Assembly (NCBI GenBank): GCA_963822845.1
Contig: CAWGIY010000009.1
Span: 208,902 to 272,901, forward strand
DNA: 64,000 nucleotides
DNA from: an uncultured Chloroflexia bacterium
GTDB taxonomy: Bacteria > Chloroflexota > Limnocylindria > QHBO01
Reading direction: 5' to 3'
The position numbers were made by a program, and so were the translations under genes. This document shows, one piece after another, positions 10,187 to 27,186 of this stretch (its first letter is position 1; each line of letters starts with the position of its first letter). The notes under the pieces were generated by a model, which saw only the letters and a program-made list of their open reading frames with translations, was not told the origin of the DNA and made no database searches.

Positions 10187-11074
10187 TGGCGCGCCCGCTG
10201 CGCTTCGGGATCAACGTCGTCCCGTTGGCGGCCGCCTACGACGGCATCCTCGAGCAGGTCCGCGCGGCCGAGGAGGGCGGGCTGGACCTCGTCGGCATCC
10301 AGGACCACCCGTACCAGCGCCGCTTCCTCGACACGTACTCGCTCATCGCCGACCTGCTGGCACGGACCGATCGCCTGCGCTTCTTTCCCGACGTCACCAG
10401 CCTGGCCGATGCGCGACCCGCCGATGATCGCGAAGGCCGCGGCGTCGATGGACGTGATGAGCGGTGGCCGATTCGAGCTCGGGCTCGGTGCCGGCAACTT
10501 CTGGGACGCGGTGGCCGGCATGGGCCGGCCGAAGCGGACGAACCGCGAGGCGTTCGCCGCGCTCGAGGAGGCGATCGCGATCATCCGCGCCGCGCTCGAC
10601 GTGGGTCCGGAACGGCGGGTCGTGCGCGGCGAGGGCCCGCACTTCCCGGTGCCGGGCTACCCACCAGGCCCGCCGCCGGCGCACCGGATCGGCATCTGGC
10701 TCGGGGTCTATCGGTCACGAGGGCTCGACCTCGTCGGACGCCTCGCCGACGGCTGGGTGCCGTCGCTCGGCTACTGCCGCCGGACGGGCTGGCGCGCGGC
10801 GTCGCGAGCGATCGACGCGTCGGCGCGTGCCGCCGGGCGCGATCCCGACGACATCACCAGGGTCGTCAACCTCGGCGGCGCCATCACCGGCGGCGAGCGT
10901 GGCGACGACGAGCTCACCGGGCCGGTCGAGCACTGGGTGTCCACGCTGGCGTCGTGGGCGACCGACATCGGGATCGACTCGTTCATGTTCTGGGCGGTCG
11001 ATGGCGACGTCGACCAGGTCCGTCGGTTCGCACGTGAGGTCGCGCCCGCCGTGCGCGAGCGAGTCGGCCGCTGA
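10186..11074 (+). CDS. LLM-class F420-dependent (luciferase-like) oxidoreductase with a +1 frameshift near 10408
   Basis: [34 protein letters not shown] in frame 1, then [30 protein letters not shown].. in frame 2 (ORF 10409..11074); start overlaps the gpsA stop (TGATG). Confidence 0.7.
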
Positions 11075-11185
11075 TGGAACGAGAGCAGGTCGCCTTCCTG
11101 AACGAGTCGGACGGAACCCAGTTCCTGTCGATCCCGATCGACGGCTCCGACTGACCTCGCGGAAGGCGCCTCTCCTGCGGCAGGC

Positions 11186-11521
11186 CTACATCAGGCCGAC
11201 GACGTGGCCCTCCGGATCGGTGAAGAGCGCGATCGTGGTCTCGGGCGCGACCTCGGTCAGCGGCATGACGACGCGGCCGCCAGCCGCCTCGACCTTGGCC
11301 AGCGTGGCGTTGGGATCCTCGCTGCTGACGTAGAAGGTGACGTGTCCGTCGCCACCGTTCTGGGCGGGGCCGATGCCGGCGGTCATCTCGCCCTGGCGCA
11401 GCAGGCCGTAGCCACCGGGGTTGTTCGTGTCCAGCTCCCAGCCGAACACGTCGCTGTAGAAGCGCTGGAGCTTCGGGCCGTCCTTGCCGGCGACCTCGAC
11501 GTGAATGATCTTGGCTCCCAT
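11186..11521 (-). CDS. VOC/glyoxalase-family protein
   Basis: 111 aa; glyoxalase/bleomycin-resistance fold pattern (..[34 protein letters not shown]..). Confidence 0.65.
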
Positions 11522-11618
11522 GGAATCGGTCTCCTTCTGAGTCTGCTGTGGGGACCGATGTCCTCATCGGCCGCTCGTCTACTCGACGTTCGGGGACCGC
11601 TGAAATCGACACGCCTCG

Positions 11619-11647
11619 GTGACGCCGCCTTCGGGCGCCCGTATACT
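11619..11647 (+). promoter_or_regulatory. putative sigma-A-type promoter for tRNA-Pro (-35 GTGACG, 17-nt spacer, -10 TATACT inside the GGCGCC-cgtatact-GGCGCC palindrome)
   Basis: TATACT at 11642-11647 lies ~20 nt upstream of the tRNA 5' end and is the only AT-rich hexamer in the region. Confidence 0.4.
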
Positions 11648-11667
11648 GGCGCCGATCCTCGCTCGGT

Positions 11668-11745
<78 letters not shown>

Positions 11746-11761
11746 AGATTCTGAGCGTGAA

Positions 11762-11794
11762 GAGAGGCCCCCGGTCACGTTCCGGAGGCCTCTC
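11762..11794. terminator. bidirectional stem-loop (GAGAGGCC..GGCCTCTC) between tRNA-Pro and the convergent CHRD gene
   Basis: 8-bp GC-rich stem with a 17-nt loop, followed by GGTTTGTC on the + strand. Confidence 0.45.
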
Positions 11795-11816
11795 GGTTTG
11801 TCGGGAGCCGAGTCGC

Positions 11817-12698
11817 TTACCGGATGGTTGCGCGCCTCAGACTCGCGACGCTGGCCGCCGCGAGGATCAGCAGCAGCCCGCCAAACAACTCGGCAACCGG
11901 CAACGCCGCGGGTCGAGCCGCGGTGTTCGGGACCGTGCCCGCAGTGACCGTGAGCGCCGCCGAGTCGCCGCACTCGCTGCCCTCGATGAATCCCCACACC
12001 GTCCACGTGCCGACACTGCCGGGCAGCATCGTGATCGTCACGCTGAATGACGCTTGGTCGACGGGCGTCGTCACGACCGGCTCGCTGTCCTCGGGGACCG
12101 ACGCGTTCTCGCCTTGCACGAGGTGGACCTCCGCGCCGCCGAAGTCGCCGGAGACAGTGATCTGTCCGCCGTCCGCCACGGTGGAGGGCTCGACAGTGAT
12201 GGTGCACCCACCACCCACGACCGAGACCACCAGCTGCCCGCGCACTGCGCCATCGGGGAACTGCTCGGTGTGGATGTTCACGTAGTACGCCGCGGGATCG
12301 GCGATGATCGCAGCCACGACATCTGCGGCAACGTCCTGGACGCAGCCGGTCATCTCACCGGTCGGAGGCTCGGTGAAGAGCGGCACGACCACGTCCCCGG
12401 CGACGCCAGCTTCACCCTCGTGGATGTGTGCGGCGACAACCGTGTCCTGGCCGATCCCGTCGATCGTCAGTTCGAAGCAGACCTCGTTCGTCTCGTCGTC
12501 GACAGTGATCACCGCGGATCCGGTCGCCCCGTCGGGACCTGGATTGGGAACCTCTGCTTCGGCCGTCAGATCAGCCGTGAACGTGGTGATCGCCGCCCTG
12601 GCGACGCCGGTCGTGAAGATGGCAGCCGCCAGCATGGCGACGATCGCGACCGCAAGTGACAGCGGCCGCGAGATAGGTGTCCGTCGACTTGTGCTCAT
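11817..12698 (-). CDS. secreted CHRD-domain protein with a hydrophobic C-terminal anchor
   Basis: 293 aa; N-terminal signal peptide; CHRD-like segment (..AAYYVNIHTEQFPDGAVRGQL..); C-terminal ..LPVAELFGGLLLILAAASVASLRRATIR; strong AGGGAGG Shine-Dalgarno 7 nt upstream. Confidence 0.6.
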   Translation of the reverse strand: MSTSRRTPISRPLSLAVAIVAMLAAAIFTTGVARAAITTFTADLTAEAEVPNPGPDGATGSAVITVDDETNEVCFELTIDGIGQDTVVAAHIHEGEAGVAGDVVVPLFTEPPTGEMTGCVQDVAADVVAAIIADPAAYYVNIHTEQFPDGAVRGQLVVSVVGGGCTITVEPSTVADGGQITVSGDFGGAEVHLVQGENASVPEDSEPVVTTPVDQASFSVTITMLPGSVGTWTVWGFIEGSECGDSAALTVTAGTVPNTAARPAALPVAELFGGLLLILAAASVASLRRATIR

Positions 12699-12790
12699 GG
12701 GACGCCTCCCTGGTCGGCGACGCGTTCAGCGTCGCTCTTGGGTACGCAGGGGCTGCAAGAGCGATACCCGGAGCCGAGGGTGCGACGCGG

Positions 12791-14780
12791 TCACCTGGAT
12801 CGGCGGCGCAGGTGGTACGGGACGTCGGCGACGATCGTGTTCGGTCGCGTGAAGAGCCGCAGCTTGAGCCGGAGAGCGGTCTGGTTGTGCAGCAGGTTCT
12901 CCCACCAGTGGCGCGGCACGAACTCGGAGAGCACGACCAGCACCGGGCGCGACGGGTCGTGGCGCTGCAGGACGTCGAGGTAGGCGAGCAGCGGACCGAC
13001 GAGCGCCCGGTAGGGCGACTCGATGACGACGAGCTCGGCGCCGCCTGACCATTCCGGCCACGCGCGACGCAGCTCATCGGCGCCGTCGTTGTCGTTCGTG
13101 ACGTGGACGGCGGTCGCATCGGGCGAGATCGACGTGGCGAAGGCGATCGGCCGCGCGCGCCGGCTCGTCGAGGCGTGCGATCGGCACGATCACCATCGGT
13201 CTGGCGGCAGCGCGGACGGGCGTGCGAGCCGGCCGGACGGCGTCGTCGACGGATCGATAGTGCGCGCGGATCCCGCGCATGAGCAGGACGAGGATCGGGA
13301 TGGCCAGCACGACCATCCAGGCCCCCGCCAGGAACTTGCTCTGCACCACGATCACCGCGATCACCCCCGTCGTCAGCGCTCCGAGGCCGTTGATCGCCAG
13401 GCCGCGTACCCATCCGGCCTCGCGACGTCGCCACCAGCGCACGACCATGCTCGACTGCGAGAGCGTGAACGCGAGGAAGACGCCGAGCGTGTAGAGCGGG
13501 ATGAGCGCGGTGACGCTCGCGCCGAACGCGATGAGCAGGAGCGCCGCGAGACTCGAGAGCGCCACGATGCCGGTGGTGAAAGCCAGCCGCTCGCCGCGGA
13601 ACGCGAACTGGCGCGGCATGAAGTCATCGCGCGCGAGGAAGGAGGCGAGGCGCGGGAAGTCGGCGAAGGCCGTGTTGGCCGCGAGGGCCAGCACGAGGAC
13701 CGTCGCCACCTGGATGAGGACGAAGAACGCGCCGTCGCCGACGAGCAGGCGGGCGATCTGCGACAGGACGGTCTGCTGTTCATGCGGGTCGGGGATGACT
13801 CCGAGCGTGCTGGCCATGAAGCTGATGCCGAGGAAGAGCGCGCCGAAGATCGCGGCGGCCCACACGAGCGTGATCCGCGCATTGCGCCACTCGGGCGGCT
13901 TGAAGGCGGGGACGCCGTCCGAGATCGCCTCGACGCCGGTCAACGCCGCCGCGCCGGAGCTGAACGCCCGCAGGATGAGGAAGAGCCCGAGCGCCTCCCC
14001 ACCGGCCTCCGCGGTCAGCCACTCGGCCGGCGGCGTGTAGTCGGGGAGCGTCCCGGTCGCCAGCCTGAACAGACCGATGCCGACCATCGCCAGGATGGCG
14101 ACGATGTAGACGTAGGTCGGCGCCGCGAAGATCGTCCCGGACTCCCGCACCCCGCGCAGGTTGCCGACCATCAGCACGACGACGATCGCGACGGCGATCA
14201 GCACCCGTTCCGGGAAGAGCTCTGGGACGACCGACGTGATCGCCGCGACCGCGGCCGACACCGACACCGCGACGGTCAGCGTGTAGTCGATGAGCAGCGC
14301 ACCGCCGGCCACGAGCCCCGCGGTCGGTCCGAGGTTGTCGCTGGATACGAGATAGCTGCTGGCGCCGTTCGGGTAGGCGCGGATGGTCTGCCAATAGCTG
14401 GTGGCGACGATCGCCAGGACGACGCAGATCGCGACGGTCAGCGGCATCGTCAGGGCGATGGCGCCGATCCCGGCGAACACGAGGATCCGCATCATCTCCT
14501 CGGTCGCATATGCCGACGAGCTGATGTTGTCGCTGCTGAAGATCGCCAGCGCCTTGAGCTTGGATAGCCGCTCGTGCTCCTCCAGCTCGCTGCTGATCGG
14601 ACGGCCGATCAGGAACGTCCGGATTCGGCGGAGCGTGCGCGTCCAGCCGGGACGATCGAGCACGGTGCGCTCGGTTGCGACCAGCTCGCCTTCGTCGCCG
14701 CGCGCGAAGAGCTCGTCGTACGGGCGCACGATCCGGACGTAGGCGTCCCCGGGCCGCCGCCCGTGTCGTCTCTCGCGCAC
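12791..14780 (-). CDS. kimA: KimA-type (APC superfamily) K+/H+ symporter, frameshifted near 13165; exact start uncertain
   Basis: Closely parallels B. subtilis KimA as I recall it (LSKLKALAIFSSDNISSSAYATEE, YPNGASSYLVSSDNLGPTAGLVAGGALLIDYTLTVAVS, LRAFSSGAAALTGVEAISDGVPAFKPP, ANTAFADFPRLASFLARDDFMPRQFAFRGERL). The track ORF 13074..14963 ends early, but the conserved cytoplasmic C-terminal domain (..AVHVTNDNDGADELRRAW..VPRHWWENLLHNQTALRLKLRLFTRPNTIVADVPYHL) continues in another frame to a stop at ~12791. Confidence 0.75.
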
Positions 14781-14838
14781 CTCGAGGTGCGCGTCGATGC
14801 TCCTCCGTGGAGCCGCGTCGCGCCGGTCGCTCACTGCA

Positions 14839-16032
14839 TCACGGCCTGGGAGTTCGCTCTGGCGGCGAGTCGCTGGCGCCGATGAGATGGACTTCGAGTC
14901 CCGGAAGCTGCCGATGCAGCTCGTCGATGAACGATCGACGCAGAGGACCGCGCCGCGCGTCACCGAGCTCGCGGCTGAGGACGACCTGCGTCGTGTGGCG
15001 CTCGCGAGCCGCCTCCGCCACGCGGGCGATCGGGCTGGATGCGGCCGGACGCACGATCGTGGCGCCGAGCTCCTCGGCGAACTCGAGATGCTCGCGCGTG
15101 TCCTGAGATCGATCGCGCGGCAGCTGGGCGGAGTCGTCGTCGACGGCCGCGATCGCGATCAGCGGTGCCCGCAGCGCGGCCGCGAGGCTCGCGGCTCGGC
15201 GAGCGACCAGGCGGGACGTGGGCCGATGGTCGACGACCAGCAGCAGCCGCTCGCGGACCGGCCACGGCTCGGTCTTGCCGCTGCCCGCCATGATGCCCTC
15301 CAGCTGCGCGTCGACGCGTTCGGCCACGTACCGCAGCGCGAGCTCGCGCAGCGCGGTGAGGTTCGCTTCGGTGAAGAAGCGGTCGAGCGCCGTCTGCGCG
15401 CGGTCGGCGGCGTACACGTTCCCGTGCCGCATCCGTTGTCGCAGTGCGCGGGGGCTCATGTCGACCAGCTCGATCTCGTCCGCGGCGAGCAGCACCTTGT
15501 CGGGAAGCCGCTCGTGCACGGGTGCGCCGATGATCGTCTCGACCGCGTCGGCGACAGACTCCAGATGCTGGACGTTGCAGGTGCTGATGACGTCGATGCC
15601 GGCCGCCCTGATCAGGTCGACGTCCTGCCAGCGCTTCGTCCGCGGCGAGCCCGGGGCGTTCGTGTGCGCCAGCTCGTCCACGAGCGCGACGGCCGGCTTC
15701 CGCTCGATCACCGCATCGGTGTCCATCTCCTCCAACGCGACGCCGTGGTACTCGATTCGGCCGCGTGGAATGATCTCGAGCCCCGCGAGCAGCTCCTCCG
15801 TCCGCGGGCGGCCATGCGCCTCGACGAACCCGACGACGAGGTCGGTGCCGCGCGCCGCGCGGCGATGAGCCTCCTGGAGCATCTCGAAGGTCTTGCCGAC
15901 GCCGGGAGCCATGCCGATGTAGACGCGGAGGCGGCCCTGCTGGCGGACCTCGCCCTCGGTCTCGAGGCGCCGGAGCATCTCGTCGCCGGTCGGGCGTCCC
16001 TCGCGCACGTCGTCAGCCATCGGTGAGCGCAT
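14839..16032 (-). CDS. kdpD: stand-alone KdpD N-terminal sensor protein (KdpD domain plus USP domain; no transmembrane or kinase part)
   Basis: 397 aa; Walker-A-like GMAPGVGKT and ..VISTCNVQHLES.. are KdpD-N hallmarks, followed by a universal stress protein (Usp) family domain (USP-like region); overlaps the 3' end of kdpC by ~20 nt. Confidence 0.8.
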   Translation of the reverse strand: MRSPMADDVREGRPTGDEMLRRLETEGEVRQQGRLRVYIGMAPGVGKTFEMLQEAHRRAARGTDLVVGFVEAHGRPRTEELLAGLEIIPRGRIEYHGVALEEMDTDAVIERKPAVALVDELAHTNAPGSPRTKRWQDVDLIRAAGIDVISTCNVQHLESVADAVETIIGAPVHERLPDKVLLAADEIELVDMSPRALRQRMRHGNVYAADRAQTALDRFFTEANLTALRELALRYVAERVDAQLEGIMAGSGKTEPWPVRERLLLVVDHRPTSRLVARRAASLAAALRAPLIAIAAVDDDSAQLPRDRSQDTREHLEFAEELGATIVRPAASSPIARVAEAARERHTTQVVLSRELGDARRGPLRRSFIDELHRQLPGLEVHLIGASDSPPERTPRP

Positions 16033-16591
16033 CCAGGTCGATATTCAGCTCCAGCACGTTCACGACAGGCTCGCCGAGGAACCCGAGAATCGGGTGGTCG
16101 GTGTGCCGATCGATGGCCGCCGTTACGTCGTCGATGTCGAGCCCTCGCGCCGCGGCGACGCGTCCGGCCTGGTACGTCGCCGCGTCGACGCTGATGTGCG
16201 GGTCCAGCCCCGATGCCGACGTGGTGACCAGGTCGACCGGGATCGGCCCGTCGCCATGCGCGGCCTGCATGCGCTCGATGTCGGCAGTGATCCGCTCGAG
16301 CAACGCCGCGCTGGTCGGAGCCAGGTTCGAACCTGACGAGCTGAGGCCGTCGTACCCGTCGCCGGCGGCGGATGGCCGTGACCAGAAGTAGGCCGGGTCG
16401 TCGAATGCCTGGCCGATGAACGCCGAGCCGACCGCCTCGCCGTCGACCTCGATGATCGAGCCATTGGCCCGTTCGCTGAAGGCGACCTGGCCGACGAGCG
16501 TGACCGCGGCCGGATAGATGACGCCGGTCACGACTGTCAGCGCGAGCAGTGCGCCGATCGCGGGCCAGATCTGGGTGCGAAGCATCGTCAT
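16013..16591 (-). CDS. kdpC: K+-transporting ATPase subunit C
   Basis: 192 aa; N-terminal TM helix and conserved ..TSASGLDPHISVDAATYQ.. KdpC motifs. Confidence 0.85.
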   Translation of the reverse strand: MTMLRTQIWPAIGALLALTVVTGVIYPAAVTLVGQVAFSERANGSIIEVDGEAVGSAFIGQAFDDPAYFWSRPSAAGDGYDGLSSSGSNLAPTSAALLERITADIERMQAAHGDGPIPVDLVTTSASGLDPHISVDAATYQAGRVAAARGLDIDDVTAAIDRHTDHPILGFLGEPVVNVLELNIDLDALTDG

Positions 16592-16603
16592 CGGTTCAGT
16601 CGC

Positions 16604-18767
16604 TCAGGCCAGGCCGATTCCGGCGATCACGAGGTCGATGAGCTTGATGCCGACGAAGGGCGCGACGAGCCCGCCGAGGCCGTAGATGAGCAGGTTGCGC
16701 TTCAGCAGGTCCGCGGCCGGCGCGGCCCGGTAGCCGACGCCGCGAAGCGCGAGCGGGATGAGCGCCACGATGATCAGGGCGTTGAAGATCACCGCCGACA
16801 GGATCGCGCTCTCCGGGGTCTCCAGCCGCATGACGTTGAGCGCTTCCAGCTGCGGGATAGGCGGTGATGAACAGCGCCGGCACGATCGCGAAGTACTTCG
16901 CCACGTCGTTGGCCACGCTGAAGGTGGTGATCGCCCCGCGCGTGATCAGGAGCTGCTTGCCGATGGCGACGACCTCGATCAGCTTCGTGGGGTCCGAGTC
17001 GAGGTCGACCATGTTCGCGGCCTCCTTCGAGGCGGACGTGCCCGAGTTCATCGCCAGCCCGACGTCAGCCTGGGCGAGGGCGGGGGCGTCGTTGGTGCCA
17101 TCGCCCGTCATCGCGACGAGGTGCCCTTCGGCCTGCTCCCGCCGGATGATCGCGATCTTCTCCTCGGGCTTGGCCTCGGCAACGAAGTCGTCGACGCCTG
17201 CCTCGTTGGCGATGGTGCGAGCCGTCAGCGGGTTGTCGCCGGTGATCATGATCGTGCGGATGCCCATGCGGCGCAGCTCGGCGAACCGTTCGCGGAGACC
17301 GGGCTTCACGGTGTCCTTCAGCTCGATGACGCCGAGGACCGCGCGATCGCGTCTGAGGGCCAGAGGCGTTGCTCCCGCGGCCGCGATGCGGTCGGAGACG
17401 ACTCGCAGGTTCGGCGGCGCATCGCCGTCGACGCTGGCCGCGATCGCGTCGACCGCTCCCTTCTCGTAGCGAACGCCGCCAGCAACGACCCCGCTGGTCC
17501 GCGTCTCCGCGCTGAACGGTGTGGTCACGGTGATCGACGCGGTCGCCGCGGCGACGGCCGCATCGTCGCCACCCGTCGCGCCCAATTCCACCAGGCGTTC
17601 GCGGGCAAAGGCGACGATCGAGCGACCCTCGGGTGTGTCGTCGCCGATGGATGTGAGCAGGGCAGCCCGCACGACATCGGCCTCGGGGATCCCGTCGACC
17701 GGGGTGATGCTGGCCGCAAGGCGATTCCCGAACGTGATCGTCCCGGTCTTGTCGAGCAGGATGACGTCGACGTCGCCACAGGCCTCGACGGCCCTCCCCG
17801 AGAGGGCGAGGACGTTGAACCGCGCCACGCGGTCCATTCCCGCGATGCCGATCGCAGACAGCAGGCCGCCGATCGTGGTCGGGATCAGGCAGACGAGGAG
17901 GGAGACGAGCACCGCCACGCCGAGCGTCGCGCCGGCGAACGCACCGAACGGGCGAAGCGTGGCGACGGCGAGCAGGAACACGAGCGAGAGGCCGGACAGC
18001 AGGATCGACAGCGCGATCTCGTTCGGGGTCCGCTGGCGCTTCGCCCCCTCGACCAGCGCGATCATGCGGTCCAGGAAGGTCTCCCCCGGATCGGCGGTGA
18101 CCCGGATGACGAGCTCGTCGCTGACGAGCTGTGTGCCTCCGGTCACGCTGCTGCGGATGTCGGTCCCGGGCTCCTTGAGCACCGGAGCGGACTCGCCGGT
18201 GATGGCGGCCTCGTTGACGTATGCGACGCCCTCGATCACCTCGCCGTCCCCCGGGATGATCTCGCCGGTCCGGACAACGACGATGTCGCCACGTCTCAGG
18301 GCCGACGAACCGACCTCCTCGAAGGTGCCGTCCTCGCTGCGACGCCTGGCGATCGTCTCGGATCGGGTCCGTCGCAACGTCGCAGCCTGCGCGCGGCCAC
18401 GGGCCTCGGCGACGGCCTCCGCATACGTCGCGAAGAGGACGGTGAACCAGAGCCACACGGCGATCTGGGCCTGGAACCCGATCTCGCGGCCGAAGTCGCC
18501 GATGTCGCCGCCGATGCCGAGGAGCTCCAGCATGAGGAGGACGGTCACCAGCGCGGCGGTCAGCTCGACCACGAAGATCACGGGGTTCCGAATGAGCTGC
18601 CGCGGATCGAGCTTGCGGAACGCGTGGGGAATCGCGGCGCGGAGGAGCTCCGGATCGAAGACGCCGCGGCGCCGCGGTGGCTTGCCCGAGGCCGCGCGGA
18701 GCTCGCGATCGGCGCGCTCTTCCCGGCGGCTGAGCCGTGACGTGTCGATGATCGACAGGATCGACAT
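16604..18767 (-). CDS. kdpB: K+-transporting P-type ATPase subunit B, frameshift near 16854 (extra C in a CCC run)
   Basis: DKTGTIT phosphorylation site, [22 protein letters not shown]. The C-terminal [32 protein letters not shown].. sits in ORF 16604..16831. 'tat ccc gca gct gga' versus expected 'tat ccg cag ctg gaa' ([13 protein letters not shown]). Confidence 0.85.
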
Positions 18768-18772
18768 CGTGC

Positions 18773-20485
18773 CTACCGCAGCCTTGCGCTCTCGAGGAGC
18801 AGCTGCTCGACGATCGGTCCGAGCGCGAGCGCCGGGAAGAAGGTAAGCGCCCCGACGATCACGATCGTTGCGACGAGGAGGCCGACGAAGAGCGGCCCGG
18901 TGGTCGGGAACGTCCCAAGGGACGGGGCCACGCTGCGCTTGCCGACCATCGACCCGGCGATCGCGAGGATCGGGACAATCGTCGCAAATCGGCCGACAAA
19001 GAGGGCGACTCCGCCGGTGAGGTTGTAGAAGCCGCTGTTCGCGCTCAGGCTGCAGAAGCACGACCCGTTGTTGGCCGACTGGCTGGTGAACGCGTACAGG
19101 ATCTCGCTGAAGCCGTGCGGCCCGGAGTTGGCCGGGCCCGCCAGCCCATCGGGCGTCACCGATGCAAGCGCGCTGAACAGCAGGATGCTCGTCGCCGTGG
19201 CCAGCACCGCGAGGAGCACCATCTTCATCTCGAACGCCTCGATCTTCTTGCCGAGGTATTCGGGCGTGCGACCGACCATCAGCCCGGCGATGAAGACCGC
19301 CAGGATCACGTAGATCAGGATCCCGTACAGGCCCGCCCCGACGCCGCCGGGCGTGACCTCACCGAGCAGCATCAGCGCCATCGGGACCATGCCCGCGAGG
19401 GGCACGAAGCTCGCGTGCATCGCGTTGACCGAACCGCTGCTCGTGCCGGTTGTCGCGGCGGCGAAGGTCCCGCTCACGAAGGAGCCGAATCGGGCCTCCT
19501 TGCCCTCCATGTTTCCGGCCGCCTGGACGACCTCGCTCGGGATGAGCGTGTTGCCGCCGAGCTCGACGAACGCCGCCACACCGATGGCGACGACCAGCAC
19601 CGACATCATCGCGGCGAACAGGACCCAGCCCTGTCGTCGATCCCCGACGAGGCGTCCATAGGTGCCGGTGAGGGCGAAGGGGATCACCAGCAGCAGCAGC
19701 ATCTCGAACCAGTTGGTGAGTCCGTTCGGACTTTCGAAGGGATGCGACGAGTTGGCATTGAACGGCCCCCCGCCGTTGGTGCCGAGCTCCTTGATCGCCT
19801 CGTGCCCGGCCAGCGGGCCGACGGCGAGCGTCTGCTCGCCGCCCTGGAGGGTCGTCACGGCGAGCGGACCGGACCATGTCTGCGTGACGCCCTGCGAGAC
19901 GAGCACGATGGCGGCAACGAAGGCGATCGGCAGCAGGATGTAGAGAGTCGAGCGGGTGAGGTCGACCCAGAAATTGCCGATGGTCGCCTGGCTCCGACGT
20001 GCCAGCCCGCGCGTGAGCGCGATGGCCACGGCGATCCCGGTCGCGGCCGACAGGAAGTTCTGGACCGAGAGGCCGGCGACCTGGGTGATGTGCGCCATCG
20101 TCGATTCGCCCGAGTACGCCTGCCAGTTCGTGTTGGTGACGAAGCTGATGGCGGTGTTGAAGGCAAGGTCCGGCGCGACTCCCTCGAAGCCGGCCGGGTT
20201 GAACGGCAGCACGCCCTGCAGCCGCTGCATCAGGTAGAGGACGACGATCGAGGCCACGGCAAACAGCAGCACCGAGACCGCGTACGCGGTCCAGCGCTGC
20301 TCGCGATCCGGGTCGACCCCGAGCAGTCGGTAGGTGCCACGCTCCACGGGGGCGAGGATCGGTGTGAGCAGCGTCCGTTCCCCGGTGAGCACCCGCGCCA
20401 TGTACCCGCCCAGGGGCACGCTCAAGAGGCCGACGACGATCAGCAGGCTCGCGCTCTCGACGAGGTCGGGAAGCAACCCGGCCAT
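18773..20485 (-). CDS. kdpA: K+-transporting ATPase subunit A
   Basis: 570 aa, about 10 TM helices, KdpA selectivity-filter-like regions (..[17 protein letters not shown]..); ATG start overlaps the kdpF stop. Confidence 0.85.
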
Positions 20486-20486
20486 G

Positions 20487-20576
20487 TCAGAGCTCCTCCG
20501 CACGCAGGAGCGCGATGAGCAGATACACGAAGAGCGCGACGGCGACGACCGCCGCGACGATGTCGATCCCGCTCAC
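20487..20576 (-). CDS. kdpF: K+-transporting ATPase subunit F (29 aa, GTG start)
   Basis: Hand-translated VSGIDIVAAVVAVALFVYLLIALLRAEEL*, matching the KdpF pattern (..LF.YL..ALL.PE.F) immediately 5' of kdpA. Confidence 0.6.
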   Translation of the reverse strand: MSGIDIVAAVVAVALFVYLLIALLRAEEL

Positions 20577-20662
20577 CGTGCCAGGCGCTCGCACAGCGCG
20601 ACATAGCCCAGGAATGCGAGGCCGAGCAGCAGCGCAAGACCGATGAGCGTGAGGTCGTCCAT
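20573..20662 (-). CDS. second KdpF-like 29-aa hydrophobic peptide, tandem to kdpF
   Basis: C-terminal 29 aa of track ORF 20573..21199: MDDLTLIGLALLLGLAFLGYVALCERLAR*. ATG overlaps the stop of the upstream receiver gene (ATGA) and its own stop overlaps the kdpF GTG. Confidence 0.45.
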   Translation of the reverse strand: MDDLTLIGLALLLGLAFLGYVALCERLAR

Positions 20663-21033
20663 CACGTCTCCGTTCCGGCGAAGCGGCGAACCGTGGCGAG
20701 CAGGGTCTCGAGCGGAAACGGCTTCGGGAGGTAGCCGGCGGCTCCGGACTCGCGCAGGCGGCGAGGGTTCACGGTTCCGGCGCTGACGATGATCGCGGGC
20801 GGCGCATCGGCCGCAGCCATGCCCGCCGACCGCAGGACCGACCACCCGGTGTCTCCGGGCAGGTTGACGTCGACGAGGACCAGCGCGGGCCGATCGGTGG
20901 CGATGGCCATGCTCGCCTCCTCGGCCGTCGCCACCACGCGGGTCGGGTGCCCGTGGGCGTCGAGGTAGCGCTGCACGAGGCCGGCCAGAAGCCCGTCGTC
21001 CTCGACGAGGAGGACGGTGCCGCCCTCCTTCAC
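20662..21033 (-). CDS. stand-alone response-regulator receiver (REC, CheY-like) protein
   Basis: 123 aa; ..VLLVEDDGLLAGL..ALVLVDVNLPGDTGWSVL..KPFPLETL with no output domain. Confidence 0.7.
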   Translation of the reverse strand: MKEGGTVLLVEDDGLLAGLVQRYLDAHGHPTRVVATAEEASMAIATDRPALVLVDVNLPGDTGWSVLRSAGMAAADAPPAIIVSAGTVNPRRLRESGAAGYLPKPFPLETLLATVRRFAGTET

Positions 21034-21275
21034 CGCCCAGCCGCCCGAGGCTGCACGACGAGGTCGACGCCCGACTCGTCCATCGACCAGATCGGCTCGA
21101 CTTCCACTCCCGACGCATGGGCAAGGGCCCTGGCCGCGGAGAGGACCTGCTCGGCGGTGGCGGTGTGGACGACGACCCGTCGGGCGGCGCCGCTCGCAAC
21201 CACGTCGATCGCGGCGCGGACGGAGTTCAGCGCCTCACCGATGTGAGCGACCTGGTCGACGTGCGTATCAGCCAT
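21030..21275 (-). CDS. hypothetical 81-aa protein translationally coupled to the receiver gene
   Basis: ORF with 4-nt ATGA overlap onto the REC gene; no recognisable motif. Confidence 0.3.
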   Translation of the reverse strand: MADTHVDQVAHIGEALNSVRAAIDVVASGAARRVVVHTATAEQVLSAARALAHASGVEVEPIWSMDESGVDLVVQPRAAGR

Positions 21276-21344
21276 GAGCCCACCGTCGCATCGAGGCCCA
21301 AGAGGGAGGGGGCCGGCGACCGCCTCCGAACGCTCAAGAAGCGC

Positions 21345-22079
21345 TCAAGATCCCGTGGGCTGCTCCAGCTCGACGGCGTCGCTGACGCGATAGCCCACGC
21401 CGGGCTCGGCGGCGATCAGCCTCCGAAGCGTCCCGGTCGCGTCGGCCGCAGCGAGCTTGCGGCGAATGGCGGCGACATGCACGTGGAGGTAGTGGGCCTC
21501 GCCGACGTAGTCGTCGCCCCACACGGCTCGCAGCAGGCGTCCACGACCGACGACCCTTCCGGCGTTGGCCAGCAGCGTCTTGAGCAGCTCGTACTCGCGC
21601 GGCGTGAAGTGGACGTCACGTTCGTCGACGGTCACGCGGCGGCGCGCCGGATCGAGAGCGAGGGGCCCGATTCGGATCGTGCCGTCCGGGGTCGCCGCGG
21701 CGACGAGTGTCCGTCGCAGTGCCGCTCTCACCCGGGCATGGAGCTCTGGCATGCCGAACGGTTTCGTGAGGTAGTCATCGGCCCCCGCATCCAGGGCATC
21801 GACCTTGTCGCGCTCCTGGTTCCGTGCAGAAAGCACGATGATCGGTGTCGTCGCCTCCCGGCGCACGCGACGAACGACGGTGATGCCGTCGATGCCAGGC
21901 AGCCCCAGGTCCAGCAGGATGAGGTCGGGGCGGTTCTGCTCCCACGCGTGCATCGCCTGCTCGCCATCCGCGGCCTCCGTCACCCGGTAGGCGTGTCCGC
22001 GCAGGTTCGTCGCGACCGCGCGACGCGTCGCCTCGTCGTCCTCGACCAGCAACACCAGTGCGGATGTCGCCGTCGTCAC
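21345..22079 (-). CDS. kdpE: OmpR-family response regulator KdpE
   Basis: REC (LVLLVEDDEATRR..DLILLDLGLPGIDG..KPF) plus winged-helix output (..FTPREYELLKTLLANAGRVVGRGRLLRAVWG..GYR). GTG start at 22079; currently fused in frame to the HATPase end of kdpD-C (no intervening stop). Confidence 0.8.
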   Translation of the reverse strand: MTTATSALVLLVEDDEATRRAVATNLRGHAYRVTEAADGEQAMHAWEQNRPDLILLDLGLPGIDGITVVRRVRREATTPIIVLSARNQERDKVDALDAGADDYLTKPFGMPELHARVRAALRRTLVAAATPDGTIRIGPLALDPARRRVTVDERDVHFTPREYELLKTLLANAGRVVGRGRLLRAVWGDDYVGEAHYLHVHVAAIRRKLAAADATGTLRRLIAAEPGVGYRVSDAVELEQPTGS

Positions 22080-23668
22080 GCGCTCGTCACGGCGTTGTGC
22101 GCGGGAAGTGGTCACGGTCACGGCGAGGCCGCCCAGCTCGCTTCGATCAGCGCGCGCGCTGCCGCCCATCGCCTCGACCAGTCCACGCACGACCGCCAGG
22201 CCGAGCCCGAAGCCGCGCCGCGCTCCCTGCCCCGGCCGGTCGATCCGCGAGAAGCGATCGAAGATCGATTCGAGTGCCTCGTCCGGCACGCCGGGTCCGC
22301 CGTCCTCCACCGTGAGCGCCACGAGGTCGTCGGAGAGGCGCTCGGCCTTGACGCGGATGGCCGTGCCGTCTCCGGCGTACTTGACCGCATTGTCAAGCAG
22401 ATTGGCGACGACCTGGTCGAGGAGCGCGACGTCCGCTTGCACGTGCGGCAGGTCGACCGGCAGATCCACCTGAGATCGGTCGGCCGTGTGCCGCGGCAGA
22501 TGCCCGCTCGACGGCGGGACCGATCAGCTCGCTCAAGGGAATGACCTCGATCTCCGGGACCAGCGCCCCGCCCTGGATCCGGCTCATGTCCAGGAGATCG
22601 CCGACGAGGTGATTGAGTCGGGCTGCCTCAGCGTCGATCGACGACGCGATCGTCCGCCGCTCGCCTGCGGGCAGCTCGATGTCCGGATCGGCGAGGCTGC
22701 CGGCGGCCGCGCGAATCGTGGCGAGCGGGGTGCGCAGGTCGTGCGAGACCGAGTCGACCAGCGCCGACTTGCAGCTCGTCGCTGCGGCCTGGCGATCTCC
22801 AGCGTCGGCGGCCTGAGCGAGCAGGCGATCGCGCCGAACCGCCTGCACCGAGCTGGTCCGCCGCGGCGGCGAGCAGCCGCGTCTCCTCGAGGTGCGGTCG
22901 GCTCCTGCATTGATCGGTCGCTCCGCCCAGAGCGAGCCGATCGTCTCATCACCGGCGCGAGAGCTCGATCCGGTACGCGCTGCGGCGTCCTCCGCTCTCA
23001 TGGGTCGCCCGGCCGCGTCGGTGGGTGGATGCGCGTCCACGTGGCCTCGCCTTCCGCTCGATCGCGCTGCAGGACCCGGTACGTGCTCGCCGGCTTCGGA
23101 GCCGCGGATTCTGGATTCGAGTCGGCGGCAACCCGCTCCGAGGCGATCGTGCGTCCGATTCCGACCCAGACGCGGCTCATCTGTGCATCGTCGGCCAGCC
23201 GCTGGGTGACGCTGCGCATCGCGTCCGCGAGGCGCTCGGACCGAACCAGCTCGCGGCTGATGCCGAAGAGTGCCCGTGCCTCGCGCTCTCGGCGTACGAT
23301 TCGTGCTCGCGGGCGCGCTGGAGTCCCGCGAGGCGGCCGATCACGACGCCGACAAACAGGAGGAGGAACAGCGTCAGCAGCTCCTCGGCACGGGACACAG
23401 TGAGCGTGAACCGTGGCTCGACGAAGAGGAAGTTGTAGACGACGAATGCGCCGATCGCGGCCGCAACTGCCGGCCAGGTTCCCTATCGGATCGCGAGCAT
23501 CGCGACCGCGACCAGGTAGACGGGCGAGGCGTGGTCGATCCCGAGCACCTGCTCGAGGACGACGACGACCACGGTCGATGCCGCAAGCGCGCCGACGAGG
23601 ACCGCGAGGAGGGGGGCGCCACGAGCTTCGGATATGCATCCCGCGATTCTATGGGCTGCTACGTCGAG
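22080..23668 (-). pseudogene. kdpD: KdpD C-terminal half (4-TM / GAF / HisKA / HATPase), disrupted by an in-frame TAG, at least three frameshifts and no start codon
   Basis: TM region (..IDHASPVYLVAVAMLAIR*GTWPAVAAAIGAFVVYNFLFVEPRFTLTVSRAEELLTLFLLLFVGVVIGRL..) contains an in-frame TAG (~23476) where E. coli KdpD has Tyr (ALFYGRWP). TM->GAF (~23290), GAF->HisKA (~23020; VSHDLRTPLATI in ORF 22393..23040) and HisKA->HATPase (~22450; LLDNAVKYAG..GLGLAVV in ORF 21345..22469) are each in different frames. Confidence 0.55.
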
Positions 23669-23671
23669 CGC

Positions 23672-24001
23672 TCAGGATCCCTCGAGGACGAACAGGGGAA
23701 TGAGGCGCTCCGTGCGACGCTGGTAGGTCGCGTACAGCGGGAATTCCCGGGTCACCAGCTTCCAGAGGCGCTCGCGCTCCTCGCCGGAGGCCTCGCGTGC
23801 CGTCACCGGCCGCTGCTCGCGCCCGACGATGACGGTGGCGTTCGGATTCGCGCGCAGGTTGTGCGCCCAGGCGGGATCGCGCGCCTTCCCGCCCCACGAG
23901 CCGGTGACCACGATCGCCTCGTCCGGGGTCTCGTAGGCGTAGAGGGTCACCGTTCGTGGCTCGCCGCTGTGGCGCCCGGTCGTTGTCAGTCGCACCTGCA
24001 T
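23672..24001 (-). CDS. deazaflavin (F420)-dependent nitroreductase family protein (DUF385 / Ddn-like), short form
   Basis: 109 aa; diagnostic ..RLTTTGRHSGEPRTV..TGSWGGKARDPAWAHNLRANP.. motifs. Confidence 0.65.
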   Translation of the reverse strand: MQVRLTTTGRHSGEPRTVTLYAYETPDEAIVVTGSWGGKARDPAWAHNLRANPNATVIVGREQRPVTAREASGEERERLWKLVTREFPLYATYQRRTERLIPLFVLEGS

Positions 24002-24012
24002 CGGTCCGAAGG

Positions 24013-25140
24013 CTAGCGCGTCACGCGGATGATTCGGTCACCCGGGCCGTTCGCGGTCGAAACGTACAGCTCGCCATCGGGACCGATGACGACCGCGCGC
24101 AGCCGCCCGAACCGACCGTCAAGGAGTGTCTCCTCGACCATGATGTCGCCGGACGGCGACACGGAGAACCGCCGCACGTCCTCCTCCTTCAGGGTGCTGA
24201 CCACGAGGTCGCCTTGCCAATCGCCCCATTCCGGGCCGGTGAGGAACGTTGCGCCGGACGTCGCGAGCGTCGACGAGCCGGAGGCCCAGGCCGGCGCGAG
24301 ATAGTCGACAGCACGGCCGCAGCCGTCGGGGATCGGTCCGGTGTCCGAGGCGCCGGTGTAGCACGGATAGCCGTAGTTGCCGCCGGCGACGATGGCGTTG
24401 ATCTCGTCGTTGACATCGGTCCCGTGCTCGGCCGCGTAGATGAGGCCGTTCGGCGAGACGGCGATGCCCTGGGGATTCCGATGTCCGAGGCTGTAGACGG
24501 CGGTGCCGAACGGATTGTCGTCCGGCACCGAGCCGTCGATCGCCAGCCGCAGGATCTTGCCGTTGAGCGACCCCGGATCCTGTGCGCGGTTCTCGCCGGC
24601 GGGCAGGTTCGCATCGCCGATCGTGATCCAGAGGTGGTCGAGGGCGACTTCGACCGCGCAGCCCTGGTGCCGTGGCCCGCCGACGGCCTCGCCAACGACC
24701 GGAACGACCTCGAACGGGGCAAGCGAGCCGTTGTCGGCGAGGGTCGAGCGCAGGAGCTCGACGCGCCATGTCGCACGATCCGGATGCCGCGAGGCGCAGA
24801 CGAACACCGTGTCGGCGGCGATCGCGATGCCCATGAGGCCGGACTCGATCTCGGCGCGCACGTCAGGGACGGTCGCGGTGTGGAGGAGCGCGGCTCCGGG
24901 CTCGCCGGAGTCGAAGACGAGCACCCGTCCGGCACGCTCGGTGACGAGCATGCGGCCGTCGGACGCGAAGGCGATGTCCCACGGGTGCTCGAGCCGGTCC
25001 TGGACGACCTCTGCGCGGACCGCGTCGAATGGTCGGACGAGAAAGAGGCCACCGGCTGCTGCGCCGAGGGCGATGACGAGAGCGGCGGATACGACGAAGC
25101 GGCTGGCGAACGCCCGGTTGGACGCCGACAGCCGCCTCAT
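24013..25140 (-). CDS. PQQ-dependent sugar (glucose/sorbosone) dehydrogenase, beta-propeller, secreted
   Basis: 375 aa; N-terminal TM/signal segment and SGDH-family motifs (..LEHPWDIAFASDGRMLVTERAGRV.., ..GHRNPQGIAVSPNGLIYAAEHG..). Confidence 0.7.
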   Translation of the reverse strand: MRRLSASNRAFASRFVVSAALVIALGAAAGGLFLVRPFDAVRAEVVQDRLEHPWDIAFASDGRMLVTERAGRVLVFDSGEPGAALLHTATVPDVRAEIESGLMGIAIAADTVFVCASRHPDRATWRVELLRSTLADNGSLAPFEVVPVVGEAVGGPRHQGCAVEVALDHLWITIGDANLPAGENRAQDPGSLNGKILRLAIDGSVPDDNPFGTAVYSLGHRNPQGIAVSPNGLIYAAEHGTDVNDEINAIVAGGNYGYPCYTGASDTGPIPDGCGRAVDYLAPAWASGSSTLATSGATFLTGPEWGDWQGDLVVSTLKEEDVRRFSVSPSGDIMVEETLLDGRFGRLRAVVIGPDGELYVSTANGPGDRIIRVTR

Positions 25141-25162
25141 GCGACGAAGGAAAGGCCGAGGG

Positions 25163-25369
25163 CTACTCGGCCGCCTTCACGTTCGTTGCGCGGGGACCGC
25201 GCGGGTTGGACTCGACGTCGAAGGTCACGCTCTCACCGCCGACCAGCCGATCGAAGTCGATGGAGTCGTTCAGCCCGTCGCGATGGAAGAAGTAGTCCTT
25301 GCCATCTTCGCCAGTAATGAAGCCGAAGCCGCGATCGGCGACGACCTTCTTGATGGAACCATTGGCCAT
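25163..25369 (-). CDS. cold-shock protein (CspA family)
   Basis: 68 aa; RNP motifs GFGFI and ..VTFDVE..GPRATNV. Confidence 0.85.
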   Translation of the reverse strand: MANGSIKKVVADRGFGFITGEDGKDYFFHRDGLNDSIDFDRLVGGESVTFDVESNPRGPRATNVKAAE

Positions 25370-25435
25370 GAGTGGCCTCCTAAACGGTCGGTAGAGCCCA
25401 AGGGTACCCGGTTGTGGCCTGTAGCATCGGCGCCG

Positions 25436-26779
25436 ATGACGGCGCTACCCGCCACGCCACCCTTCGCGCTCCGCGCGCGGCTGCTCTCCCCGCTGGCCGA
25501 TGGCGGGATCCTCGACGAGTACGACGGCCTCGTCGAGGTCGATGCCAGCGGTCGAATCGCCGGTGTCGCGCCATGGCCCGGGGACGGTCCGGCGGCCGGC
25601 GTGGTCGACTTGCGGCCGATGGTCGTGCTCCCCGGCCTCGTCGACCTCCACGCCCACCTTCCCCAGCTGCCCAATGCGGGGCTCGGCAGCGGTCTCGACC
25701 TGCTGACCTGGCTGGACCGATACATCTTCCCGCTCGAACGGGCCTATGGCGAGCGCACCGCGAAGCGGACGGCACCCGAGGCATTCCGTGCCTTCGCGGC
25801 CGCAGGGACGACGACGGTCGTCGCGTACGCGGCCATCTGGGCTGAGTCGACGGACGCGGCCTTCGCAGCCGCAGAAGCTCACGGGATCCGTACGGTCATC
25901 GGCAAGGTGATGATGGACCGGATCACCTACGACTCCAGGATCGATCCGGGCGAGATCCTCGAGACGAGCCTCCGGCAGTCGGATGAGCTCGCGCATCGAT
26001 GGCATGGTCGGGACGAGGGCCGGCTCCAGTACGCGTTCACGCCGCGCTTCGCCGTGAGCTGCACCGCGGAGATGCTGCGCGAGTCCGCCGCGCTCGCCAA
26101 GCGCCACGGCGCGTATTGGCAGACGCACCTCTCCGAGGATGTCGGCGAGATCGACGAGGTGAAGCGGCTCTTCCCAGAGGCGGCGGACTACCTGGACGTG
26201 TACGACCGGGCGGGCGGGGTCGGGGAGCGGACGATCCTCGCCCACGCCATCCATCTCGGCGACCGTGAGGTGGACCGGCTCGTCGAGAGCCGTGCCGGCG
26301 TGGCGCATTGCCCGGCATCGAACCTCTTCCTGTCGAGCGGGATGATGCCGCTCGGCGCGTACCTGCGCGCCGGCGTGCGGGTCGGCCTGGGAAGCGATGT
26401 CGCCGCAGGCCCCGAGGTCTCGATGTTCACCGTCATGCGCGCCGGTGCGGTGACGCAGCGGGTGCTCGAGCTGACGGACCGAGCCGATCGGTCGCTGGCG
26501 GTGGCGCCGATCGACTGGCTGCGGCTGTGCACGCTCGGCGGTGCCGGGGTGCTCGGCCTCGAGGACGCGATCGGCTCGATCGAGGCCGGCAAGGAGGCCG
26601 ATCTCATCGCCGTCGACCCTCGCATGACCACGCCACTGCTCGGCGACCAGCCGCGGATCGCGGAGGCCATTGACGTCATCAGCCGGCTGATCTTCCGGCC
26701 GCACCCGAACATGGTGCGCGGCGCATGGGTGCGCGGGCGGTTGCTCGCAGGGCCACCGGGCGAAAGCGGAATCGGCTAG
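25436..26779 (+). CDS. amidohydrolase-superfamily deaminase, most likely guanine deaminase
   Basis: 447 aa; metal ligands VDLHAHLPQ ... HLSE ... GLGSDVAAG and the general guanine/cytosine deaminase layout; ATG at 25436 inside the longer track ORF. Confidence 0.65.
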   Translation: MTALPATPPFALRARLLSPLADGGILDEYDGLVEVDASGRIAGVAPWPGDGPAAGVVDLRPMVVLPGLVDLHAHLPQLPNAGLGSGLDLLTWLDRYIFPLERAYGERTAKRTAPEAFRAFAAAGTTTVVAYAAIWAESTDAAFAAAEAHGIRTVIGKVMMDRITYDSRIDPGEILETSLRQSDELAHRWHGRDEGRLQYAFTPRFAVSCTAEMLRESAALAKRHGAYWQTHLSEDVGEIDEVKRLFPEAADYLDVYDRAGGVGERTILAHAIHLGDREVDRLVESRAGVAHCPASNLFLSSGMMPLGAYLRAGVRVGLGSDVAAGPEVSMFTVMRAGAVTQRVLELTDRADRSLAVAPIDWLRLCTLGGAGVLGLEDAIGSIEAGKEADLIAVDPRMTTPLLGDQPRIAEAIDVISRLIFRPHPNMVRGAWVRGRLLAGPPGESGIG

Positions 26780-26788
26780 GCTGCGCGC

Positions 26789-27169
26789 GTGGACTACGCG
26801 ATCCAGATCCTCATCAACGCCGCGGCGCTGTTCGTGGCGCAGGCGCTGATCGACGGGCTGGACTTCGACTTCTCCCAGCCCGATGCCTGGTGGCAGTTCC
26901 TGCTGGTGGCGCTGATCTTCGGCCTGGTGAACACGTTCCTGAAGCCGCTGCTGCGCCTCCTGACCCTGCCGATCACGATGGTCACGCTCGGCCTCTTCCT
27001 CCTCGTGATCAACGCGTTCCTCCTGTGGCTCACCGGGGTCATCTCCGAGCAGCTCGCGCTGGGCCTGGAGATCAACGGCTTCCTGCCGGCGCTGCTCGGA
27101 GCGATCGTCATCAGCATCGTCGGTCTCCTGCTCTCGATGGTGGTCGGCGCGGGTCGGAAGGCCGTCTGA
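26789..27169 (+). CDS. phage-holin-4 (DUF360-type) family small membrane protein
   Basis: 126 aa, 3-4 TM helices, family-typical N-terminus (MDYAIQILINAAALFVAQALI..). Confidence 0.5.
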   Translation: MDYAIQILINAAALFVAQALIDGLDFDFSQPDAWWQFLLVALIFGLVNTFLKPLLRLLTLPITMVTLGLFLLVINAFLLWLTGVISEQLALGLEINGFLPALLGAIVISIVGLLLSMVVGAGRKAV

Positions 27170-27186
27170 CGCCCCCTTCCTGACCG

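Follow-up and report, generated by a model that had tools for sequence, protein, structure and literature searches.

How does a bacterium whose potassium sensor KdpD is split into two separately encoded chains arrange and control its potassium uptake genes? The question is raised by a cluster of minus-strand genes in a stretch of 64,000 nucleotides (nt) from contig CAWGIY010000009.1 (assembly GCA_963822845.1). This stretch, referred to as the window, has a G+C content of 70 % and comes from a soil Chloroflexota of the class Limnocylindria. An earlier note on the window had read the cluster as a single operon of eleven genes, in which the two parts of KdpD lie on either side of the pump genes kdpFABC and a second importer, KimA, closes the row. 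We conclude that the cluster is a known kind of system with undescribed clade-specific extras. It is likely to be a functional Kdp regulon of Limnocylindria type, consisting of three layers, in an assembly that is rich in small insertions and deletions (indels); the biochemical steps of this regulon are all inferred.

The split sensor and the conserved gene order

The N-terminal KdpD chain, KdpD-N, was used as the query against species-representative genomes, and 80 loci were obtained. Nearly all of these belong to metagenome-assembled genomes labelled Chloroflexota or Candidatus Limnocylindria and are 56-64 % identical to the query, with one at 84 %. The Actinobacteria that the earlier note had taken as its frame of reference are therefore misplaced, i.e. 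the nearest relatives are Limnocylindria. Synteny was counted by tblastn of the window proteins against the KdpD-N loci, and the denominators given below are the numbers of assessable loci. Families were assigned with Pfam and NCBIfam, and KimA was also compared with PDB entry 6S3K. Two relatives were used for close comparison. L001 has every gene of the cluster intact and was the reference for frameshift-aware protein-to-DNA alignment. L161, which was found via the orf81 homolog P0001 (93 % identity), lies on a contig that is collinear with positions 31192..11183 of the window (20 kb) at a nucleotide identity of 94.4 %. An exact look-up of the KdpD-N protein returned no record, and the metagenome contigs scanned with the open reading frame (ORF) joining HATPase and KdpE gave just distant kinases and regulators with identities of at most 50 %.

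The split of KdpD described in the earlier note was borne out: the KdpD/Usp chain comes right after kdpC, and the chain with DUF4118, GAF, HisKA and HATPase domains lies beside kdpE. The gene kdpD-N (14839..16032, with an alternative start at 16020; on the minus strand, as are all genes of the cluster) encodes 397 amino acids (aa) that comprise only a KdpD domain (Pfam, E = 1e-90) and a Usp-like domain (23.7 bits, Pfam cut-off 24), i.e. there is no membrane or kinase part. The product is predicted to be an atypical serine-kinase chain. It contains a Walker A-like GMAPGVGKT followed by F at residues 40-49 and a Walker B VALVDE at residues 115-120, and these motifs are kept in 79-80 of the 80 homologs. 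They correspond to the serine-kinase motifs that have been published, namely a Walker A-like G-x5-GKT, a Walker B D-E and an aromatic residue after GKT (PMC11018627). The N-terminal KdpD chain is reported there to be a serine kinase that phosphorylates Ser162 of KdpB in the TGES motif, by which the pump is switched off at high K+ (PMC11018627). The translated KdpB of the window has TGES, with the regulatory serine of the A-domain, as well as the catalytic DKTGT. Because both Walker motifs are present in KdpD-N and both motifs in KdpB, the split sensor is a further example of a published arrangement and nothing new. Silberberg et al. (2024) found a KdpD/Usp chain together with a separate transmembrane/GAF/kinase chain to be common in Chloroflexota (PMC11018627); split KdpD is exemplified by Deinococcus, Anabaena and Alicyclobacillus and is said to be most common in Acidobacteriota and Chloroflexota (PMC11018627). 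Compared with the NCBIfam model NF038185, "KdpD-like non-kinase potassium sensor", KdpD-N is matched over positions 5-370 of 373 (E = 1e-100), and since it reaches 337 bits against a cut-off of 550 bits, it is a subfamily distinct from the seed sequences of that model.

All four subunits of the pump are encoded together: kdpF (20487..20576; Potass_KdpF, Pfam E = 1e-6), kdpA (18773..20485; KdpA, 772 bits; no frameshift), kdpB for the P-type ATPase subunit (16604..18767; E1-E2_ATPase and Hydrolase) and kdpC (16013..16591; KdpC, 237 bits). The other part of the split KdpD, the histidine-kinase chain KdpD-C, is encoded at 22076..23639 in a broken reading frame; DUF4118, GAF-like, HisKA and HATPase_c domains were recognized with Pfam and through the L001 and L161 orthologs, and among the NCBIfam models KdpD PRK10490 fits best (positions 405-884, E = 2e-65; next family 4e-41). 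Its start is the ATG at 23639, not 23668. The adjacent kdpE (21345..22079) encodes an OmpR-family response regulator with Response_reg and Trans_reg_C domains that is 98 % identical to the KdpE of L161. The KdpE model ties with those of MtrA and RpaB (NCBIfam, E = 3e-52, below cut-off), so the label rests on gene context.

Three small genes lie between kdpE and kdpF. The first, orf81 (21030..21275), encodes a conserved protein of 81 aa and is the first gene of the conserved core operon; no family matched it, and its fold gave no functional lead. The second (20662..21033) is a stand-alone receiver, i.e. a response regulator of which Pfam finds Response_reg only. Its phospho-acceptor site is complete (equivalents of DD, D55, S84 and K104), and its best NCBIfam matches are the receiver domains of OmpR-family regulators. 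The third (20573..20662), which the earlier note had named kdpF-like, encodes the single-span membrane peptide MDDLTLIGLALLLGLAFLGYVALCERLAR of 29 aa. The peptide has no family match, but it was predicted as a gene in L161, and homologous peptides ending in ...LCDRVR or LCERLAR are found between the receiver gene and kdpF in nearly all loci.

It is conspicuous that a part of the cluster is nearly constant across the class and another part is not. The receiver-only gene is directly upstream of kdpF/kdpA in all 63 assessable loci, orf81 adjoins it in at least 54 of 63, and kdpD-N directly follows kdpC in 75 of 79. The kdpD-C/kdpE pair is found upstream on the same strand in 41 of 59 loci and downstream in convergent orientation in 19 of 72, and kimA comes directly after kdpD-N in 6 of 72. 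In other words, the conserved core consists of orf81, the receiver gene, the 29-aa peptide, kdpFABC and kdpD-N, the pair for the kinase and its regulator changes position, and the invariant block of the synteny comparison runs from the receiver to kdpD-N. The layout of the window had been presented as unusual; for its clade it is not, as it is the commonest in the class (the 41 loci of 59 just mentioned).

Eleven co-directional minus-strand genes of the families that had been named were recovered with Pfam, but the ORFs of kdpD-C, kdpB and kimA are not intact. In particular, the homology searches with the products of 14839..16032 and 12791..14780 returned KdpD with Usp and AA_permease_2/KimA, respectively, as predicted. 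The junctions, whose sizes are given after correction of the start codons against L161, are as tight as had been stated from orf81 to kdpD-N (at most 12 nt, or overlapping); the gaps between kdpE and orf81 (69 nt) and between kdpD-N and kimA (58 nt) are wider. The 29-aa form of kdpF overlaps the preceding stop codon by 4 nt, likewise in L161. At the other end of the small genes, the GTG start of kdpE overlaps the corrected stop of kdpD-C (GTGA), which could be read directly at the junction.

A promoter-like module and the link to kimA

The 105 nt upstream of orf81 can be aligned without gaps in 60 of 62 loci, including 14 in which kdpE is not upstream. The alignment shows a rigid order of elements: two TTnAG half-sites 11 bp apart, 26 nt, CCTCTTGG, about 10 nt, an nAnnnT hexamer, 6 nt and the ATG. 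In the window the half-sites form the direct repeat CTTGAG-N5-CTTGAG (21333..21349), which has an 11-bp period, resembles a KdpE box and overlaps the kdpE stop codon; its position is fixed in 60 of 62 loci. The site of KdpE in E. coli reads TTTATA-N5-TTTACA (PMC3264566). In 1.44 Mb searched for copies of the elements there are 43 strict matches to the repeat, 33 of which precede orf81 or the receiver gene and 4 kimA.

The 8-mer CCTCTTGG (21298..21305), between the repeat and the hexamer, provides the highest-information columns of the 60-locus alignment. The window has a single copy, and the same 1.44 Mb contain 46 exact copies beside orf81 and 23 elsewhere, the latter number being at chance level. 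A reading of CCTCTTGG as a -35 or sigma-54 element was rejected, as the spacings are unsuitable. The hexamer GACGGT (21282..21287) is -10-like, with its A and T columns at a fixed distance in the 60 loci, and its end lies 7 nt upstream of the A in the start codon of orf81. Since this is the distance expected for a leaderless transcript, it suggests that the orf81 message is leaderless. Scans with promoter and terminator consensus sequences gave nothing above shuffled sequences, and no structure beyond that of shuffles was found when three intergenic gaps were folded.

The earlier note had placed the whole cluster under one transcription unit, and as stated this is unlikely. A promoter-like module lies between kdpE and orf81, and the kdpD-C/kdpE pair is elsewhere, in convergent orientation, in 19 of 72 loci. 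For these two reasons, i.e. the conserved module in the gap and the mobility of the pair, the cluster probably comprises at least two transcription units.

The last gene of the run, kimA (12791..14780), encodes a K+/H+ symporter of the KUP/APC type with a C-terminal cytoplasmic domain (AA_permease_2). Its L001 ortholog aligns with B. subtilis KimA (PDB 6S3K) over residues 4-605 of 607 (E = 8e-142) and shares 78-89 % identity with the protein of the window, whose gene has to be corrected in frame once. The KimA-type importer that had been placed last in the run is thus a true ortholog of B. subtilis KimA. Where the gene starts is not certain: an in-frame GTG is first met at 14780, and L001 starts five codons earlier with an ATG (MDPHLEV...), at the position of which both the window and L161 have ATC (I-D-A-H-L-E-V).

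B. subtilis KimA is controlled by a c-di-AMP (cyclic di-AMP) riboswitch of the ydaO type. A scan of the whole window at the Rfam gathering threshold found no ydaO riboswitch; only two tRNAs were matched. In the window, the 58-nt gap between kdpD-N and kimA contains neither a marked hairpin nor a repeat. The upstream regions of kimA were surveyed in relatives, where 19 kimA genes with the N-terminal end present were available in the fetched loci. Six of them follow kdpD-N, another six are preceded by a repeat of their own at a distance of 105-477 nt, and three are transcribed divergently from orf81, with the repeat region common to both; at least one of these three kinds of linkage applies to 14 of the 19. 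As there is no ydaO riboswitch in the window and a KdpE-box-like repeat precedes kimA in relatives, the pattern suggests that kimA is under two-component rather than riboswitch control. The idea of two K+ importers under shared control is strengthened as far as a regulon is concerned, given that the repeat is linked to kimA elsewhere, and is unlikely for a single transcription unit.

In three loci, kimA is preceded at a distance of 5-17 nt by a diverged orf81 paralog (L023, 269..670; L038, 1604..2074; L051, 518..940; all on the minus strand). The paralogs match the hidden Markov model (HMM) of orf81 with E of about 1e-7 and are situated between a GTTGAG-N5-GTTGAG repeat and kimA. In these kimA modules a CCTCTTGG-like variant box and a clearer TAnnnT hexamer are in the expected places.

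Broken reading frames and neighbouring genes

The frames were checked with a GC3 frame plot (G+C at third codon positions), three-frame translation and open-frame analysis together with Pfam, which were used instead of a codon-usage HMM segmentation for frameshifts whose strand assignment was too noisy. HATPase_c, Response_reg and Trans_reg_C are in a single frame in the ORF 21345..22469, HisKA is in another frame (22393..23040), and AA_permease_2 is in 13074..14963. The HisKA and HATPase_c domains of kdpD-C thus sit in two different frames. The coding phase shifts within kimA and kdpB and several times within the kinase gene, where the part for the membrane domain also holds a stop in frame. 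The earlier note had read through these frameshifts and a stop codon without remark, and its product of 12791..14780 spans two frames.

After about ten frame corrections kdpD-C aligns end to end with the 532-aa ortholog of L001 and keeps all motifs, including SVSHDLRTPL, the phospho-histidine box of HisKA. The L161 gene is an intact ORF of 520 aa with DUF4118, HisKA and HATPase_c, domains that are also present in the L001 ortholog, and its stop overlaps the kdpE start. Relative to L161, kdpD-C of the window has 13 frame-breaking indels and a TAG at 23485 (TAT, Tyr, in L161). Ten of the 13 are 1-nt insertions, and all of the window's 1-nt insertions are absent from L161. Eight of the frame-breaking indels (six 1-nt insertions, one 4-nt insertion and one 1-nt deletion) fall within about 240 nt, at 22771..23009; none of these is in a long homopolymer, several adjoin GATC sites, and the cluster may be due to local low coverage or methylation-linked miscalls. 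In addition, kdpB has one break near 16852-16856, a 1-nt insertion relative to L161 that puts the C-terminal 83 residues in another frame (L161 KdpB is intact, 720 aa), and kimA has one near 13147-13154 with its tail in another frame. Alignment to L001 likewise required one correction in kdpB (~16856) and one in kimA (~13154) and, besides kdpD-C, none in the other genes. The density is 13 indels in 1.56 kb for kdpD-C versus 0-2 per other kdp gene and 3 in kimA.

Genes outside the cluster are also split between frames, namely ispH/LytB, gpsA, a luciferase-like gene and an MIP channel gene (the regions concerned are 4557..6113 with 5140..5793, 9183..11074, and 54677..55408, all on the plus strand). 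According to Pfam, ispH/LytB covers model positions 1-182 in a first frame and 184-266 in a second, the N- and C-terminal domains of gpsA are in different frames, the luciferase-like gene lacks the first 80 model positions and the gene for the MIP channel is interrupted at model position 97-99. The assembly is therefore indel-rich. With the indels ignored, the ratio of non-synonymous to synonymous divergence (dN/dS) between window and L161 is 0.18 for KdpD-C, 0.09 for KdpE, 0.11 for KdpA, 0.07 for KdpB, 0.19 for KdpC, 0.14 for KdpD-N and 0.085 for KimA. Since kdpD-C and kdpB are intact in L161, dN/dS is 0.07-0.19, and ispH and gpsA are frame-shifted too, the breaks are, as far as can be read from the sequences, assembly errors or at most very recent. 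Frameshift errors of the same kind were seen in L008 (CAWFCQ010000008.1) and L161, the two closest relatives, as in the window assembly. In L008 kdpA and kdpB are each in six pieces (5500..9300), and L161 kimA has a frameshift elsewhere in the gene, with the N-terminus in the other frame (L161 16440..16900).

It is hardly probable that kdpD-C, perhaps with kdpB and kimA, is a genuine pseudogene inactivated recently, so that the locus would be decaying or kdp expression would not depend on the kinase. The 13 indels and the nonsense codon within 1.56 kb, their absence from the interior of kdpA, kdpC, kdpD-N, kdpE and the receiver gene, and the position of the kdpD-C indels outside long homopolymers are what one would expect of it. 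However, KdpD-C with the indels removed is 94.9 % identical to the L161 protein at a dN/dS that still indicates constraint (0.18), and its nucleotide differences (5.3 % vs. 3.4-4.5 % in the neighbours) are only slightly more numerous, although 13 real indels should bring many more substitutions. Moreover, the preponderance of insertions (10 of 13) is contrary to the usual deletion bias, ispH and gpsA are essential genes and frame-shifted as well, and the related long-read assemblies L008 and L161 have random frameshifts of their own. Apparent pseudogenes and fusions at such loci of long-read metagenomes should thus be compared with a near relative before they are interpreted.

Two other readings of the frames were rejected. 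HATPase_c and kdpE are in one frame in the window because of one extra base at 22109 relative to L161, and the true stop overlaps the kdpE start, so there is no natural fusion of kinase and KdpE here; HATPase_c and kdpE are likewise in one frame with no stop in L008 (3532..4000). As for stop-codon reassignment, the coding signal abuts in-frame stops at five sites of the window, but the contexts are those of normal gene ends, at which both TGA and TAG occur.

Two more genes on the same strand lie upstream of kdpD-C, one for an F420H2 quinone reductase-like protein (23672..24001, gap 32 nt) and, 11 nt further, one for a PQQ/GSDH-type sugar dehydrogenase (24013..25140). Their order is kept in L161, and the row of genes on this strand thus extends beyond eleven; in L001 the two genes are not conserved upstream of kdpD-C. 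Downstream of kimA is a gene for a CHRD-domain protein (11817..12698, minus strand), which has 78.7 % protein identity to L161 and a synonymous divergence (dS) of 0.43, compared with 95-98 % identity for the kdp genes. Rfam matches nothing in the window but the two tRNA genes, at 11668..11741 and 54511..54583 (both plus strand), the first of them just beyond the CHRD-domain gene.

Proposed working and comparison with known systems

The regulon that we favour would work as follows. KdpD-C would sense K+ with its DUF4118-GAF-HisKA-HATPase chain and phosphorylate KdpE. Phosphorylated KdpE would bind the 11-bp-period repeat over the kdpE stop codon and, judging from the module and from the E. coli precedent, activate a promoter just upstream of orf81 whose transcript is probably leaderless. 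The overlaps and small gaps point to a core message of orf81, the receiver gene, the 29-aa peptide, kdpF, kdpA, kdpB, kdpC and kdpD-N, and the 58-nt gap with neither a notable hairpin nor its own repeat is consistent with read-through into kimA in this lineage. KdpD-N, made together with the pump, would phosphorylate the TGES serine of KdpB and switch the pump off when K+ is sufficient, a step that draws on work with E. coli and D. geothermalis and on the conserved motifs. The stand-alone receiver, the gene of which lies inside the operon that KdpE would induce, is most simply taken to accept phosphate from KdpD-C as well and to exert negative feedback, either as a phosphate sink or as an inactive partner competing with KdpE.

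Several points weigh against this proposal. It is from its architecture that the repeat is taken as a putative KdpE site, CCTCTTGG matches no standard promoter element, and no terminator was found between kdpE and orf81, so read-through from the kinase genes is possible. KdpD-N falls under the curated cut-off of NF038185, NCBI's family of stand-alone KdpD-N proteins. The c-di-AMP motif of Firmicute type in USP domains, (A/G/C)-x-S-x-S-x2-N-(Y/F) or S-x-S-x20-FTAxY (PMC8214093), is absent from KdpD-N of the window and from 80 of 80 homologs. Finally, a uniform error rate does not explain why the indels are clustered in kdpD-C.

Two alternatives concern the way in which the parts are connected. 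A single supra-operon of eleven genes, with one promoter upstream of kdpD-C and the KdpD halves re-associating non-covalently into one sensor, would agree with the co-directional genes, with the lack of terminator-like hairpins between them, with the overlap of most junctions and with a layout that is kept in 41 of 59 loci. We consider it unlikely: the promoter-like module found in the gap of 69 nt between kdpE and orf81 persists in loci that lack an upstream kdpE, the kdpD-C/kdpE pair lies downstream on the opposite strand in 19 of 72 loci, just 6 of 72 have an adjacent kimA, and published work gives the N-terminal chain a catalytic role of its own on KdpB. Read-through and contact between the two KdpD chains are possible alongside an internal promoter. 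A chimera of Anabaena KdpD-N and the C-terminal half of E. coli KdpD is reportedly a working sensor, which speaks for this alternative. The other alternative concerns the input of the serine kinase. Here the receiver, maybe together with orf81, would take over the coupling in cis of full-length KdpD by relaying the K+ signal of KdpD-C to KdpD-N, to the pump or to KimA. The receiver-only gene in 63 of 63 loci and orf81 in nearly all, the Usp domains without the known c-di-AMP motif in 80 of 80 homologs, and the diverged orf81 paralog before kimA behind a similar repeat in L023, L038 and L051 would fit such a link. It nevertheless appears doubtful, as it is drawn from co-occurrence, the fold of orf81 offers no hint of a function, and c-di-AMP could bind through a different motif, the D. 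geothermalis protein being c-di-AMP-responsive. The feedback regulon remains our preferred reading.

In a wider and quite tentative form, which we hold to be somewhat improbable, a KdpE-type regulator would drive both Kdp and KimA through the repeat, CCTCTTGG and the -10 element throughout Limnocylindria and perhaps their neighbours, and the orf81 family and the kinase-phosphorylated receiver would be a new branch that couples the K+ sensor to the serine-kinase chain or to the transporters. The literature held nothing relevant on a receiver-only gene in kdp operons or on K+ transport in Limnocylindria, and the orf81 family, the receiver-only gene, the 29-aa peptide, the promoter module and the link between repeat and kimA seem to be undescribed. 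What is of lasting value is thus the accessory set around the split KdpD in an abundant, uncultured class of soil and freshwater: a receiver-only gene in every locus, a new family of small proteins encoded at the head of both K+ uptake operons, another mini-peptide ahead of kdpF, and a rigid promoter module with the invariant 8-mer CCTCTTGG. The set bears on a question from the 2024 work, namely how a separated serine-kinase chain learns the K+ status without a known c-di-AMP motif, and it suggests that a two-component system can take the place of a riboswitch in the control of KimA.

The published split KdpD systems (PMC11018627) and the present one have the same split point between Usp and the membrane domain and the same position of the KdpD/Usp chain directly downstream of kdpC. 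They also share the Walker A-like and Walker B motifs, the TGES of KdpB and a separate kinase beside a KdpE-type regulator. Here, in contrast, the kinase/regulator pair is usually immediately upstream on the same strand, three additional conserved genes, those for orf81, the stand-alone receiver and the 29-aa peptide, separate kdpE from kdpF, and the Usp domain is without the Firmicute c-di-AMP motif. The canonical kdpFABC-kdpDE of E. coli differs more widely, in that KdpD is one polypeptide, kdpDE is downstream of kdpC, and a receiver-only gene, orf81 and kimA are absent. The repeat has the 6+5+6 architecture and the invariant TT core of the E. coli KdpE box (PMC3264566), whereas its half-sites are of the TTnAG type in a G+C-rich context, and CCTCTTGG has no E. 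coli counterpart. The homology to B. subtilis KimA (PDB 6S3K), established through the L001 ortholog, is full-length and includes the cytoplasmic C-terminal domain; the difference is that kimA is here attached to the kdp operon and, in relatives, stands behind a KdpE-box-like repeat.

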